A DNA stretch of 64,000 nucleotides from IMG/VR virus record IMGVR_UViG_3300036987_000083, positions 32,001 through 96,000 of that record; one strand, given 5' to 3'. The translations under genes and the position numbers were made by a program. This DNA is from a virus. Shown here piece by piece: positions 2,462-40,410 of this stretch. Numbering within the stretch: position 1 is the stretch's first letter; every line of letters starts with the position of its first letter. The notes beneath the pieces are model-generated. The model worked only from the letters and a program-made list of their open reading frames with translations, searched no databases and was not told the origin of the DNA.

Positions 2462-2522
2462 GGGTGCCTGGGTAGGGCTACCGATGAGCTATAGGCCTGA
2501 GTAGCCCGAGCTACTTCCCGAG

Positions 2523-2594
2523 TGACCCCACCGGGATTCGAACCCGGATTCTCACCTTGAAAGGGTGGCGACCTAACCCTTAGTCGATGGGGCC
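2523..2594 (-). tRNA. trnE: tRNA-Glu(UUC)
   Basis: cloverleaf; loop CTTTCAA; TTCGAAT T-loop; no encoded CCA. Confidence 0.95.
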
Positions 2595-2687: not shown

Positions 2688-2759
2688 TAGACGCGGCTGG
2701 ATTCGAACCAGCGACCCGCTCCGTGTAAGGAAGCAGCTCTACCCCTGAGCTACGCGCCT
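2688..2759 (-). tRNA. trnV: tRNA-Val(UAC)
   Basis: cloverleaf; stem GCTTC/GGAGC, loop CTTACAC. Confidence 0.93.
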
Positions 2760-2760
2760 G

Positions 2761-2833
<73 letters not shown>

Positions 2834-2920: not shown

Positions 2921-3100
2921 TTAGCCGATATCCTCCACAAGGACAGTCTTCCGTCCCGCCGCCTTGGCTTTCTCCGCCGCCGCAGCGTAAATCCGTTCCA
3001 CCACCCGGCTGAGTTCCTCGATGGCTTCCGCCCCGGTACGAAGACCCTGGGCCTTCCCAAGGGCTTTCACTTTGCTAGTTACTACTAGAATTTCGGACAT
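2921..3100 (-). CDS. bacterial-type histone-fold protein (Bd0055/HBb-like), 59 aa
   Basis: MSEILVVTSKVK...AIEELSRVVE...AKAAGRKTVLVEDI, typical alpha2-L2-alpha3 RKTVxxxDI signature; AAGGA SD. Confidence 0.85.
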   Translation of the reverse strand: MSEILVVTSKVKALGKAQGLRTGAEAIEELSRVVERIYAAAAEKAKAAGRKTVLVEDIG

Positions 3101-3237
3101 GGGTTTTCCTTGTTGTACGGTTATGGACAAGAGCAGCCTACGTGATGAGCCCGCCAGTCGGGGCACCACGGTTTGTCGCCGCCATCCGGATGAGGGATAC
3201 CTTCTGCGGAGCGCTTAGTCAACCACAGTAGTTCTGA

Positions 3238-3432
3238 CTACTTGATTGGGTTCTCGTCTACATCCACGATGCGGAGACGGCGCTTACGCGCTACGCCTGC
3301 GGTAATGGCCTCCGAAGCGGTGTAGTCGCTGTGGCTGTGCTCCGTAAAGCACTCTTGGGTGCAGATGGCCTTCAGCCTTCCACCTTCGTACAGCCGCTCT
3401 CCGCACTCCTTCTTCTTGGTCGCGTCATCCAT
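3238..3432 (-). CDS. small Cys/His hypothetical protein, leaderless
   Basis: TTGACA-N18-TATGTA-N6-ATG. Confidence 0.7.
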   Translation of the reverse strand: MDDATKKKECGERLYEGGRLKAICTQECFTEHSHSDYTASEAITAGVARKRRLRIVDVDENPIK

Positions 3433-3477
3433 GCTCTGTACATAGCACGATGTACCTGCCGGTGTCAAGCGGCGGGA

Positions 3478-5195: not shown

Positions 5196-5434
5196 TAGTT
5201 ATGCATCCCCCGCTCCGTCCGGTGACGCAACTCGCCCAATACGGTGTTTGTCGCCCCAACGCTAAGGCTGGAGACGAACAACAATGGGGAATCGGTGCCG
5301 ATGGCGACACAGAGCAACACGCCAGTGATGACGCTAACTGCCGCGTGTGCTTGTGCCATCCGGAGGCTCACCTCGTACGCGGCGAGCAGTCTCGTTCCCA
5401 TTTGTAGAAGTTCAGCGTGGTCGTCGGATTTCAT
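5195..5434 (-). CDS. small membrane protein
   Basis: two hydrophobic stretches; ATGA overlap. Confidence 0.6.
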   Translation of the reverse strand: MKSDDHAELLQMGTRLLAAYEVSLRMAQAHAAVSVITGVLLCVAIGTDSPLLFVSSLSVGATNTVLGELRHRTERGMHN

Positions 5435-5670
5435 TGGTTTTCCTTGATGCGCGCAAGCTCTTCGCTCCAGAAGGCGTCGCGTTGCTTATCCTGGAACTCG
5501 ACTACAATCATCGGGTCTTTGGGAGTGGCGCCGCATTCGGTGGTGTCGAAGCTGACGATACGCCCTGTCTGATGGAGAAAGGAGCGGAACCGCTTATCCG
5601 CTTCGCGGTCCCCTCCGTAAATGTACCCATCTACCAAGCTAACCACCTTCACCAGGTCTCCGAGTTTCAT
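5431..5670 (-). CDS. hypothetical protein, KOW/SH3-like start (MKLGDLVKV)
   Basis: ORF and motif. Confidence 0.65.
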   Translation of the reverse strand: MKLGDLVKVVSLVDGYIYGGDREADKRFRSFLHQTGRIVSFDTTECGATPKDPMIVVEFQDKQRDAFWSEELARIKENQ

Positions 5671-5677
5671 CGCGCCC

Positions 5678-5941
5678 TCAACGCTTTCCCGGGTGTTCCG
5701 TCTTGTTAGCGTCCGCGTCTTCCGCCTTCCAGGCGCGCTGTTCCAGACTGCGAATTTCTTCCATGAGATCCTCCAAGTCGAGCCGCAGAGCAGTGGGGAG
5801 GAGGAGCTTTTCCTCTAGGGCCGCACTCAGAGAATGTGATGCCACGGAGAGGCTTTCGAGGAGACGACCCCACCTGCGGCCGTACCTCCTGTTGAATAGC
5901 TGCCTGATAGGTGGACCTTTTTTCTTACGCTTTGTATTCAC
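5678..5941 (-). CDS. hypothetical protein
   Basis: GTGA overlap; GGAGG SD. Confidence 0.6.
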   Translation of the reverse strand: MNTKRKKKGPPIRQLFNRRYGRRWGRLLESLSVASHSLSAALEEKLLLPTALRLDLEDLMEEIRSLEQRAWKAEDADANKTEHPGKR

Positions 5942-6459
5942 AATTCCTCCTTCGCCGCGAGGGCGGCTCGGGCTAGCTCGGCGGCTTCTGGTCCAGAGAA
6001 ATAAACGCCCATGACCCCATCGTCATAGCCGTTTGCAATTTGGCTTAGTGCCCACTCCAGCTTCGCGATGCGTGCCGCGAGGCGGACCTCGCGCTGTGCC
6101 CGCGCCTCGCGCTGCTTCTCGGCGGTGTCGCGGAGCGCCGCCCGTGCCGTGTCAAGGAGCCGCTGGATTGCGGCTTCCTCCGCCGCGTCGCTGATGAGCT
6201 GGCTGACTTCCGCCCGCGCCTCGTCGCGCTCAAGCAGGTGCTGCTGATTTATTACAGCGACCTGCTCGTAGCACTCCTTCCACGTCATGACGGAAAGCTC
6301 GTTCGGGTCACGGAGAGCGGTTTTTTTCCACGCGTCGCACTCCTTCTTTAGCCGCGCTACTTCCGCTCGAAGCTGCACTAGTTCAACAGCGTCTTTCTCC
6401 CGTTGCTCGATTCCCAGTTGATCCAAGTCGAAACGGATTGCCTTCTCTTGATTGCTCAT
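5938..6459 (-). CDS. coiled-coil protein, ALAAKE-tail family
   Basis: shares LRDxAExQRE and ARAALAAKE motifs with other ORFs. Confidence 0.7.
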   Translation of the reverse strand: MSNQEKAIRFDLDQLGIEQREKDAVELVQLRAEVARLKKECDAWKKTALRDPNELSVMTWKECYEQVAVINQQHLLERDEARAEVSQLISDAAEEAAIQRLLDTARAALRDTAEKQREARAQREVRLAARIAKLEWALSQIANGYDDGVMGVYFSGPEAAELARAALAAKEEL

Positions 6460-6680
6460 GCCGGGGTTCCCCTAAACGCCGCGTCGCGTGACACGACTTC
6501 TCCTGTTAGCTTCACGACTACCTTTACGGGAGGCTCATCTGAGGTTACTCCGTACACGTAAGGGTTGTGGTGGCTCTGAACGTAGTAACGCTTCGTTGTA
6601 CGCCACGCCTCTCGGGCGTCTCCAACCAAGAGGGTGTCTTGATGCCCGTCCCAGTACGTGACGACGTATTTACGCTTCAT
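6456..6680 (-). CDS. hypothetical protein
   Basis: ATGA overlaps at both ends. Confidence 0.65.
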   Translation of the reverse strand: MKRKYVVTYWDGHQDTLLVGDAREAWRTTKRYYVQSHHNPYVYGVTSDEPPVKVVVKLTGEVVSRDAAFRGTPA

Positions 6681-6916
6681 GTCGTCACCGCTCTTCCTTC
6701 GAGCGCCGCGTCCCGAAGGACAGCGCAACGCGGGCATGTGGGGATGGTGTTGCGGAGATAGTCGGCGGGAATGAGCGTGATGTCACGGCCAGTGGAGTCA
6801 GAGCACCGTGCCCCGTCGCACGCTCTGACCCAATCAGGGGTGTCTCGCTCCTGCATGAGGCCCGAACGCAGGTGTGTCCACCCCCACACCGTCGCGTGTG
6901 TCAGCGGGGCGCTCAT
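6677..6916 (-). CDS. LTHAT-RACD-CPxC family protein 1
   Basis: paralogue motif. Confidence 0.8.
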   Translation of the reverse strand: MSAPLTHATVWGWTHLRSGLMQERDTPDWVRACDGARCSDSTGRDITLIPADYLRNTIPTCPRCAVLRDAALEGRAVTT

Positions 6917-7185
6917 GGCGTCACCTCTTTTCCTTCAAGCGCCGCGTCACGCATCACAGCACATTTAGGGCATGTGGGGATTTTTTTGCGGATTTGCTCG
7001 GAGGCGATGGTGTAGCTCCAGTCAGGCTTGTTATCGCACGCCCGGCGCCACCCTTCGTCGATATTGGGTTCGTCCCCCCTCAAAACGCGTAGCCCATTCA
7101 CCGTCGCGTGCGTCAGTGGTTTTGCGTTCCGCGCCACGACGACACAACTATCCCATACGTCGGAGTGCGTTAGCGGGGCGGTCAC
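6913..7185 (-). CDS. LTHAT-RACD-CPxC family protein 2
   Basis: paralogue motif with duplicated PLTH start. Confidence 0.8.
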   Translation of the reverse strand: MTAPLTHSDVWDSCVVVARNAKPLTHATVNGLRVLRGDEPNIDEGWRRACDNKPDWSYTIASEQIRKKIPTCPKCAVMRDAALEGKEVTP

Positions 7186-7379
7186 GGACGCCTCACGACA
7201 TACCGGTAGCGACGGGGTACCGCCGATCGTTGGCCGTCACAGACTGCAATCGCACGTAGCGCGAACGCGCGTACCTTGCCTGGCGTCGCCAGGTCATGCG
7301 TCTGCTCATTTAGCATGGCGCGCACAACAGCGATGCGCTCCTCTAGGAACAGTACCTCCATTCGCTTCTTAGCAGTCAT
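7182..7379 (-). CDS. hypothetical protein
   Basis: coupled operon member. Confidence 0.55.
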   Translation of the reverse strand: MTAKKRMEVLFLEERIAVVRAMLNEQTHDLATPGKVRAFALRAIAVCDGQRSAVPRRYRYVVRRP

Positions 7380-28443: not shown

Positions 28444-28476
28444 CATTTCCACTGGAGGAGAGGATGTGCGCCGTGT

Positions 28477-28713
28477 TTACTTGGGGCAGTCGTCACAGGC
28501 ACCTGCGCTCCATGGATGATCACAGCGACGGCTCCATGTCATAAAGTACCTGATTTCGAGTGTGGGGAGCCCGAATTTCTTGGCAAGGTGTTCGTCTACC
28601 TCTGCGTTTTCGGGGACCAGGTAGCCCCCCATATGGGGCTTTTGATGCTTGCGGACGTAGCGGTCTTTTTCGGCGCGAATCTTAGCGCCGAGGATTTGGC
28701 GTTCAGTAGGCAT
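28477..28713 (-). CDS. hypothetical protein with C-terminal Cys/His motif
   Basis: TAATG overlap. Confidence 0.65.
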   Translation of the reverse strand: MPTERQILGAKIRAEKDRYVRKHQKPHMGGYLVPENAEVDEHLAKKFGLPTLEIRYFMTWSRRCDHPWSAGACDDCPK

Positions 28714-38480: not shown

Positions 38481-38678
38481 TCAAACCAGCACTGAGCCGG
38501 TGTCGGCGGAGCCGACCAGAAACTCGCCCACATCCACCGGGCCGTACTCGTCGAGGACGCCCGGCGTTGACAGCGCCGTCTCCATCAGCGCGTCGAGGGC
38601 GGTAGCCACCGACTCGGCATCAGTCTTCGAGTCGTCGTACTCGACCGCAAAATACAGCCTCGCCGTCTTCTTCGCCAT
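38481..38678 (-). CDS. acidic hypothetical protein (A.ALD.L...ALS.PG.L.EYG)
   Basis: AAGGAG SD; own promoter. Confidence 0.75.
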   Translation of the reverse strand: MAKKTARLYFAVEYDDSKTDAESVATALDALMETALSTPGVLDEYGPVDVGEFLVGSADTGSVLV

Positions 38679-38739
38679 GGTGCTTCTCCTTTTCCTCTTG
38701 AATCTCTTTTACTACGGGTGGCAGCCCCTTGTCAAGTAC

Positions 38740-39565: not shown

Positions 39566-39742
39566 GGGGTGTTCCTTTCGACTGCGGGTGTGCCCCACTA
39601 ATACCACGTTAGGCAATCAATGGTCAAGGTATTTGTTTCGACCGAATGAAGATAGCTGGCACGCGAAATGATTTCCAGGATTACGCTGGACAATGAGTTG
39701 CCCATGTCCTGCATGCGGGAGGGAGGGAAAACTCCCCGCAGC

Positions 39743-39886
39743 CTACTGGAGCCAGCGCCAGATGTGGCCGCCGAGTTCCCAGCCGATGCGACCGATGATG
39801 GCGAGAGCCACCACTTCGCTCAGGACGATGAGGGCAAAGGTGCTGAGGTCTGGGTTGTCGAAGGGGTCTTCTTCTTCTTGTCGCAT
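39743..39886 (-). CDS. 47-aa membrane peptide (not in ORF track)
   Basis: MRQEEEDPFDNPDLSTFALIVLSEVVALAIIG...; flanked by inverted boxes. Confidence 0.5.
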   Translation of the reverse strand: MRQEEEDPFDNPDLSTFALIVLSEVVALAIIGRIGWELGGHIWRWLQ

Positions 39887-39984
39887 AGGAGTTTTCCCTA
39901 CCACACCTTACCCGGACCTGGGGTCGAGCACAAAGAAAACCGGGCACCTATCGAGTGCCCGGTTTCCACCGCGTGGGTTGGATG

Positions 39985-40410
39985 TTACTCCGTGAGGGGC
40001 TTCAGCTCCGCGAGCACCTTCGCGAGGGTGAAGGGGCCCAGCTTCTTGTTGTGCCCGCCCTTGGGGATAATCAGGGCCGTTGGCGTGGGGTCGCCCTTGT
40101 CTGAATTCATGTAGTGCTCGGGGTCCGCCAGCTCCAGCAGCTCCGACACAACACTTTCTTTGTCCAGCATCAAACCCGAGTACCAGCGGGGGCCACAGCA
40201 TTCACACATGGACTCCGAGTAGTCCGGCTGGTCCGAGAGTCGCTCCCCCGCCTCCTGCTCGCAGTCCGCCTCGACGTACACCTGTTTCGCGGGCCCGGTG
40301 TAGAAGCCCCCGCTGTTGTTTTGCCAAAAGCGGAACCACGGGCCTTCCGCGAGGACCGTCTCCAGCATGGGCACCAAGCCCTCGGGGGTGCTCGCGTTGG
40401 TGTTCTTCAT
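39985..40410 (-). CDS. conserved phage hypothetical protein (F.QNNSGG...C.CCG.RW)
   Basis: recalled motif; leader and promoter. Confidence 0.75.
   Translation of the reverse strand: MKNTNASTPEGLVPMLETVLAEGPWFRFWQNNSGGFYTGPAKQVYVEADCEQEAGERLSDQPDYSESMCECCGPRWYSGLMLDKESVVSELLELADPEHYMNSDKGDPTPTALIIPKGGHNKKLGPFTLAKVLAELKPLTE

Follow-up and report, generated by a model that had tools for sequence, protein, structure and literature searches.

Why would a large tailed phage encode a minimal bacterial-type histone beside a set of tRNA genes? The question is raised by a 59-codon gene on the minus strand of a 64,000-nucleotide stretch of viral DNA (the window), which covers positions 32001-96000 of IMG/VR record IMGVR_UViG_3300036987_000083; the whole record is labelled G000 here. 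The locus raises several narrower questions as well: whether the protein coats or bends DNA, whose DNA it acts on, what the zinc-type domain found in its relatives contributes, and why it keeps company with tRNA-Lys and tRNA-Val. A preliminary description of this DNA had proposed a phage-encoded bacterial-type histone, and sequence, predicted fold and predicted dimer agree in supporting a histone-fold protein of the HBb/Bd0055 type. We consider it likely that this identity, a dimeric DNA-binding function and the cassette context set out below hold jointly.

The first-ranked matches of the protein in a phmmer search of all Protein Data Bank (PDB) sequences are HBb/Bd0055 entries 8fvx and 8cmp (E 4.6e-11). 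The alignment pairs residues 1-58 of 59 with HBb 1-59 at 52% identity, so that the Bd0055 sequence given in the preliminary description was correct and its match is full-length. A profile of the closest relatives finds HBb with an E value of 2.6e-20. An AlphaFold2 model built on an alignment of 54 relatives has a mean predicted local distance difference test score (pLDDT) of 94.1, with helices at residues 8-17 and 24-47 and a one-turn helix at 55-57. In a Foldseek search with this model, HBb entries 9ezz, 9f0e and 8fvx came first (template modelling (TM) score 0.90-0.92, root-mean-square deviation 0.8-1.4 A, 52% identity), followed by HLp and HTkC (TM 0.82-0.85) and then archaeal HMf (TM ~0.63). 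Several features of the bacterial-dimer histones, a category defined through sequence clustering (PMC11390915), recur here. The predicted fold has a shortened alpha2 and a single-turn alpha3, and the RKTxxxxD motif is present as R50-K51-T52...D57, aligned to R51-K52-T53...D58 of HBb. The alpha1 lysines (profile positions 11, 13 and 17) and the T-S N-cap are kept as T8, S9, K10, K12 and K16; S9 and K12 are near-invariant across the 54 relatives (alignment A1), and K10 is invariant in a narrower alignment of close relatives (A2). That category was first described as confined to bacteria. The contig of the present gene also encodes the portal, capsid, sheath and terminase of a phage, and we therefore place the histone with the viral counterpart, BBVHFP.

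The protein is predicted to form a symmetric histone-fold homodimer. The predicted interface has an ipSAE score of 0.78, whereas the highest score among three controls was 0.00; contacts are 100% concordant between runs, and partner pLDDT is 90. In calibration, 20 of 30 solved homo-pairs passed the mark, as did 1 of 23 single chains, and the value obtained here may simply mirror likeness to solved HBb dimers. The predicted interface is the conserved histone-fold core, which would also suit an offensive use: mixed dimers with an HBb-type histone of the host could disable host chromatin, as the preliminary description proposed alongside a coating or shielding of phage DNA. Histones of the bacterial-dimer type are spread over several phyla, and Bdellovibrio appears to depend on its own, HBb, for viability (PMC11317129, PMC10627809, PMC11390915). 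We nevertheless find such poisoning quite improbable. The host may have no histone at all, and the closest cellular homologue is just 56-58% identical. Moreover, phages with hardly any relationship to one another carry histones of one clade, a distribution more readily explained by a general role on DNA than by a partner specific to one host.

How might such a dimer hold DNA? The main DNA contacts of HBb are N22, R57, S9, T53, T8, S24, K10, K12, K52 and K16, together with an R51-D58 clamp (Hu et al., PMC11317129). In a HMMER alignment, 7 of these 10 residues are identical in the phage protein (T8, S9, K10, K12, K16, K51 and T52), and the clamp is retained as R50-D57. The HBb contacts that are kept here all go to the DNA backbone, across the minor groove (PMC11317129). 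At the HBb N22 site the phage protein has R21. In the profile, position 21 corresponds to R19 of HMfB, and Hocher et al. describe such a loop-1 residue as the minor-groove 'sprocket' arginine that is missing in Bd0055. From this alignment we infer that the phage type retains a loop-1 arginine that HBb lacks. The C-terminal end is archaeal in style (..AEDI), and the C-terminal tail of HBb is absent.

The retained R21, the low net charge and the extra cysteine-rich domain of some relatives, which could add specificity, might suggest a more selective protein, one that serves as an architectural factor for transcription or replication at certain phage sites in the manner of phage HU-type proteins, instead of coating DNA in bulk. 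This is unlikely in our view. The conserved contacts all go to the backbone, the protein shows neither an obvious recognition helix nor obvious base-reading residues, and no candidate site was found. By analogy with HBb in vitro, the histone would instead bind DNA without sequence preference and bend or coat it.

Is the gene intact and in use? The preliminary description reported a 59-residue open reading frame (ORF) with a Shine-Dalgarno element, an over-extended start in the ORF track, and adjoining tRNA genes. All three points hold. Exact translation of the minus strand, a detail that description had left out, gives the quoted sequence; an AAGGAA Shine-Dalgarno-like element lies 5-10 nucleotides 5' of the ATG at 3100; and tRNA-Lys, tRNA-Val and tRNA-Glu follow directly downstream on the same strand (Table 1). 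The mechanical ORF call starts farther out, at a GTG at 3169, and gives 82 residues. We take ATG 3100 as the start because the homologues all begin M-[SA]-[DE]-x-L-V-V. An AGGA/GAGGA element is also kept ahead of the gene in three related phage contigs, L089-L091 (DNA alignment A3). Among the phage copies that are linked to tRNA genes, the ratio of nonsynonymous to synonymous substitution rates (dN/dS) is 0.04-0.29 wherever dS is measurable (0.17 for the window against L160, 0.15 against L091). Judged by these ratios, the histone gene is under purifying selection, and is real and working. It is the sole histone-fold gene that a genome profile search found in the record, and no HU/IHF gene was found there.

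These observations bear on whether the gene is simply a decaying passenger that has no current function. An adjoining cysteine-rich partner has clearly decayed, as described below. The histone ORF is intact, with a start, a Shine-Dalgarno element and all core motifs, and dN/dS is well under 1 in every measurable pair; we disfavour the passenger explanation as very improbable.

Where did the gene come from? A scan of 1.84 billion representative proteins at E<=1e-3 returned 111 relatives, which comprise singlets of 58-65 residues and tandem doublets of ~120-135 residues. The doublets, HBb-type pseudodimers, include P0004, P0005, P0008 and others, and P0022 (237 residues) joins a different Cys/His-rich N-terminal domain to an HBb-type doublet. 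A second scan, of one genome each from 185,579 species, found 375 loci. The best 80 of these 375 are mostly from Bdellovibrionota, and the closest homologues among them, at 56-58% identity, are from Lindowbacteria, Bdellovibrionota, Iainarchaeota and Endomicrobia. Nearest of all are sequences from metagenomes: P0115 (75% identity), P0002 (71%) and L160 (63%). None of 50,697 GenBank phage records and no PHROG family matched the protein, so that on these searches this kind of phage histone is known only from metagenomes. A search of viral contigs with the single protein as query gave no match; viral relatives were recovered with alignment A2 as query, the wide alignment A1 being too diverse for a pattern search.

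The preliminary description had envisaged capture from a host lineage that has such histones and had called for a phylogeny against host histones. In a quick maximum-likelihood tree (116 rows, 61 columns), the tRNA-linked and cysteine-fused sequences all fall on one side and all 20 cellular rows on the other, a weak split with a Shimodaira-Hasegawa approximate likelihood ratio (SH-aLRT) value of 78. The protein of the window nests among the cysteine-fused forms (support 87), and so groups with the phage type and with no cellular sequences. A recent capture from a host is unsupported, because cellular identity is at most 56-58% against 71-75% for phage and metagenome sequences, the G+C content of the gene (57.8%) is that of the phage (57.6%), the tree grouping is phage-type, and the ancestry is one of fusion to a cysteine-rich domain seen here in phage and metagenome proteins. 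An ancient transfer, in either direction, is possible.

That ancestry is written in the DNA just upstream of the gene. The histone of L089, L090, L189 and L160, and that of at least 12 metagenome proteins (for example P0115, P0116, P0118, P0051, P0078 and P0120-P0127), carries an in-frame N-terminal fusion to a conserved cysteine-rich domain of ~35 residues. Its ligand pattern is C-x2-C-x3-C-x4-C-x2-C-x2-H-x3-C-x-C. Linkers of 0 to ~70 residues join the two parts, and every fusion keeps the Met or Val that belongs to the histone itself. In L106 the cysteine-rich domain is a separate, overlapping upstream ORF. In the window, tblastn with the N-termini of P0115, P0116, P0118 and P0051 matches 3228/3219..3103 (E 2e-9 to 1e-6, with 2e-9 at 3219-3103). 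Here 4 of 7 conserved cysteines are replaced (by G, H, G and W), a stop stands at the position of the relatives' Gly, and a 2-nucleotide frame shift is visible in DNA alignment A3. Read in this way, the over-extended ORF region is the wreck of the partner domain, and because this frameshifted, stop-containing relic lies just upstream, the histone of the window is a secondarily bare form. The ancestral form carried a small cysteine-rich partner domain that probably bound zinc.

The cysteine-rich domain had no Pfam ZZ hit at E<=1, no other credible Pfam hit and no PDB sequence match, and the ESM Atlas gave weak leads only. A fold search with a model of the fused protein returned matches dominated by the histone part. 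The domain (..C.xC..CGEPWC..H[YF]..C.C.GP..) forms a family of its own (viral contigs L190-L199, and L200-L203). It also occurs alone in phage proteins of 60-140 residues; in L200-L203 it is inserted in an ORF resembling a C5 DNA methyltransferase (motifs FSGIGG and PCQ).

Why are tRNA genes found beside this histone? The order histone, tRNA-Lys(ttt), tRNA-Val(tac), all on one strand, recurs in 7 loci: the window, four viral contigs (L089/G001, 190 kb; L090/G002, 187 kb; L091/G003, 168 kb; L189, 189 kb) and the metagenome loci L106 and L160. In some of them a tRNA-Asn or tRNA-Gln is inserted before the Lys/Val pair. The gap between the pair is zero in L089, L090 and L091 by ARAGORN coordinates and 0-6 nucleotides in L106, L160 and L189 by start offsets, and the junction can be aligned base for base (A3). 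No tRNA stands beside the histone gene in any of 17 bacterial or archaeal loci, and none lies within 1.5 kb of the histone in the other 78 metagenome loci. In G000 the tRNA trio is 95 kb away from the main 42-gene tRNA array, and G001 also keeps a Lys-Val-Gly trio separate. One explanation, that the adjacent tRNAs serve the histone's own AAA, GTA and GAA codons, was dropped, as there are just 6-8 codons per residue type.

The six other linked loci form one syntenic phage group. G000 and G001 have just 6 ORFs in common (all-ORF tblastn, 1e-8), and a search of G001-G005 for the capsid protein gave no match. Since these two genomes share so few ORFs yet have the same gene order, the histone-tRNA arrangement is, as far as such comparisons detect, common to at least two phage lineages with almost no other shared genes. 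Two small ORFs do have counterparts in the G001 group. A 79-residue ORF at window 5434-5670 (minus strand) is 73% identical to an ORF 1.3 kb from the histone in L160, and an ORF at 28456-28707 (minus strand) is 44-46% identical to one among the tRNAs of L090 and L091; neither belongs to a known family. Between L160 and G001 (L089), the flanking genes are ~85-92% identical and the histones only ~55-63%. The L160 histone is 68% identical to P0002/P0115 and 63% identical to each of the copies in the window and G001. These values hint at exchange of histone alleles between phages. In the linked phages, ARAGORN also called a tRNA with anticodon tca ('SeC', possibly a UGA reader) near the histone module and two tRNA-like genes with 2-nucleotide 'anticodons' (calls at L090:8861-8933 and G001 38638-38710 and 169162-169236), as well as a tmRNA in G001 at 39712-40054.

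Together these comparisons point to a conserved and possibly mobile module, in which a mini zinc-binding cysteine-rich domain, an HBb-type histone, tRNA-Lys(UUU) and tRNA-Val(UAC) would travel in at least two near-unrelated lineages, apart from the main tRNA array and co-transcribed for high early output, with the partner domain fused, separate or decaying. We put this forward tentatively, with our doubts somewhat outweighing our confidence. If true, phages would have a 'zinc-finger histone' family that has yet to be described, and its fused, split and lost forms would be a natural series for studying what the partner domain brings to a bacterial-type histone.

When would the histone be made? 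The window contains 50 copies of a box of the form CTTGACA(A/C)CGGCAG where 1.08 would be expected, and almost all of them lie on the minus strand. The consensus reads TTGACA, ~17 nucleotides, tgGTAtAAg, a promoter of sigma-70 type. As a recurrent class, these elements run over window 1480-51185 on the minus strand at 41-50 sites, in the form CTTGACAACGGCAG, ~9 nucleotides, tgGTATAAg. A sigma-70 consensus scan around the gene found none; the promoter class of this phage does not satisfy the -10 rule of the scan and came to light through pattern matching. The ATG often comes just ~8-12 nucleotides past the -10 element, which suggests that the first cistrons of this class are leaderless. The first cistron of the histone cassette, a 64-residue ORF with no Pfam or PHROG match, is possibly leaderless too. 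The exact box lies at 3469-3456 and the next promoter-like box only at 2394-2381 (minus strand); we therefore infer one unit that consists of the promoter box, the 64-residue ORF, the relic, the histone, tRNA-Lys, tRNA-Val and tRNA-Glu. A simple consensus scan detected no terminator-like site between the histone and the tRNAs.

Table 1. The putative histone-tRNA cassette, listed in the direction of transcription (window coordinates)
Feature	Position	Strand	Basis and details
Sigma-70-like promoter box	3433..3469	-	exact CTTGACACCGGCAG at 3469-3456, then TATGTA -10-like element
64-residue ORF, first cistron of cassette	3238..3432	-	ORF list; ATG ~8 nucleotides past -10-like element
Decayed cysteine-rich relic	3121..3222	-	possible TTG at 3222-3220; TAA stop at 3123-3121; frame 2 nucleotides off that of the histone
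Ribosome-binding region	3101..3115	-	AAGGAAAACCC ahead of ATG; read from sequence
Histone gene, 59 residues, alpha3-truncated, HBb/Bd0055-type	2921..3100	-	ATG at 3100; stop TAA at 2923-2921
tRNA-Lys(UUU), ttt	2760..2833	-	ARAGORN; 87 nucleotides past histone stop
tRNA-Val(UAC), tac	2688..2759	-	ARAGORN; abuts tRNA-Lys with zero spacer
tRNA-Glu(UUC), ttc	2522..2594	-	ARAGORN; final gene ahead of next promoter box

Because the cassette lies behind a sigma-70-like promoter box, early co-transcription seems probable: host RNA polymerase would transcribe the histone early and together with the tRNAs, and output would probably be high. This timing also suits a takeover of the host nucleoid, in which an early histone would compact the host chromosome and help to shut off host transcription or replication, much as early proteins of other phages disrupt the nucleoid. 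The promoter box of the cassette is one of >40 of its kind that precede small genes on the minus strand, an arrangement to be expected of genes for early host takeover, and sequence-independent binding is expected by analogy with HBb (PMC11317129). However, a non-specific binder would coat phage DNA too. We regard takeover as a serious alternative with a clearly minor share of the probability.

What kind of virus carries this cassette? The record is 179,489 bp long with a completeness estimate of 88%. Its gene products include a portal, a tail sheath, a terminase and a major head protein of the T4 gp23 type, the last with at most 33.5% identity to that of any GenBank phage, and it holds 46 tRNA genes. 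By this gene content the record is a genuine large T4-like tailed phage, as yet uncultured. Elsewhere in it, a 1497-residue ORF at G000 105766-110259 (L004:9766-14259) has weak terminase-large-subunit matches and an HNH endonuclease match at residues 879-961; the HNH segment may be an intein or a homing-endonuclease insert. A 587-residue ORF at G000 5592-7355 (minus strand; L002:5592-7355) has a C-terminal transposase-type match (phrog_506, E 2e-20).

A genome of this size, about 180-200 kb, invites comparison with eukaryotic giant viruses, which package histones (PMC13681535). On that model the protein would be a condensing agent that is packaged in the capsid and injected with the genome, as with giant-virus nucleosomes. 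The gene's position argues otherwise: at 35.1 kb it is ~62 kb upstream of the structural module, which starts at 97 kb, and its neighbours are sigma-70-like cassettes and not head genes. Packaging is hence about as improbable as poisoning by mixed dimers, if not slightly more so.

We therefore return to the function we lean towards, in which the phage makes the histone as a nucleoid-associated protein, to organise or shield its own replicating DNA. Our confidence in it falls just short of balancing our doubts. The partner domain would have been let decay in this phage, with the histone working alone. Several points weigh against this proposal. The first concerns the identity of the protein, for which the preliminary description had suggested both profile and Foldseek comparisons with histone-fold families. 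The structural half succeeded, with the TM scores of 0.90-0.92 to HBb, but the Pfam profile PF00808 (CBFD_NFYB_HMF) scored 19.7 bits (19.3 in the genome search), below its gathering threshold of 21.4, with an E value of 0.001 and over residues 30-58 only. The second concerns DNA binding. G23 replaces HBb S24 and E56 replaces the second-ranked contact R57, and given these changes the binding mode could differ in detail from that of HBb. The net charge is only ~+2, and the binding mode of HBb is itself disputed between an encasing filament (PMC10627809) and bending (PMC11317129). The remaining points concern timing and target. The promoter assignment is a consensus match, early synthesis cannot shield the first injected genome, and the target could be either phage or host DNA.

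How does this protein compare with known histones? HBb/Bd0055 (PDB 8FVX, 8FW7, 8CMP, 9EZZ and 9F0E; PMC10627809, PMC11317129) shares the fold, in which alpha2 is shortened and alpha3 makes a single turn. The two proteins have in common the LVVTSKVK start of alpha1, the GRKT loop-2 motif and the R-D clamp, and a homodimer is predicted for the phage protein. In contrast to HBb, the present protein is phage-encoded, lacks the C-terminal tail (..IVIDHL), and has a loop 1 that is one residue shorter, with R21 for Asn22. It also has Gly at the S24 site and Glu at the R57 site, the latter as in archaeal HMf (..AEDI). Unlike cellular HBb-type genes, of which none of 17 loci has an adjoining tRNA, the phage gene sits in a tRNA cassette. 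HLp (9QT0) and HTkC (9F2C), the face-to-face histones, have the same truncated fold at ~30% identity (TM 0.82-0.85) and share the loop-1 Arg/Thr-Ser pattern. However, they form tetramers, and the profile of the relatives favours HBb (E 3e-20 against 1e-10 to 1e-11).

Schwab et al. (2024) defined 'bacterial dimer', 'ZZ' and 'phage' categories of alpha3 histones (PMC11390915). The ZZ histones combine an N-terminal zinc-binding domain with a bacterial-dimer-like histone, and the same architecture is seen in P0115, P0116, L089, L090 and L189 and would have been that of the ancestor of the window's gene. The phage domain is shorter, with ~25 residues from first to last Cys against ~46 in ZZ, and its likeness, that of a shortened ZZ finger, extends to a similar CxxC..Cx4C..CxC..H motif order only. 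In the window itself the cysteine-rich region is broken: its frame differs from that of the histone, a stop interrupts it, and 4 of 7 cysteines are gone. The 'phage histones' of Schwab et al. (2024), or VTTH of Liu et al. (2025), are likewise alpha3-fold proteins from tailed phages. Those proteins have a long C-terminal tetramerisation helix and no RxTxxxxD, whereas the present protein has R50-K-T..D57 and no such helix.

The closest precedent comes from Liu et al., whose search of IMG/VR yielded 84 histone-fold proteins of bacterial-like type from Caudoviricetes (bioRxiv 10.1101/2024.12.06.627149; hLife 2025, PMC13681535). Their BBVH/BBVHFP cluster comprises Bd0055-like predicted dimers, for which no functional test was reported (PMC13681535). 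Our protein shares with this cluster the Bd0055-like fold, the predicted dimer and an origin on a Caudoviricetes contig from IMG/VR. In BBVH/BBVHFP a C-terminal helix replaces the flexible loop of HBb, whereas the present protein ends at G59, two residues past alpha3, with no extension. Linkage to tRNA genes and zinc or cysteine-rich domains go unmentioned in Liu et al. ('tRNA' 0 and 'zinc' 0 occurrences; PMC13681535).

What, then, does this locus add? Phage Bd0055-type histones were already catalogued by computer in 2024-25. The present gene is one more member and leaves the general picture of phages that carry such histones unchanged. Bacterial-type histones were recognised only in 2023-24, and their DNA-binding mode is still disputed. 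In this setting the example offers a minimal, tail-less version of 59 residues, a natural variant with Arg for N22 and Glu for R57, a cassette context with tRNAs behind a promoter-like box, and relatives that bear a cysteine-rich domain. Set beside the known systems, what appear to be new are the linkage to tRNA-Lys and tRNA-Val, the cysteine-rich partner together with its decay here, and the retained loop-1 arginine.

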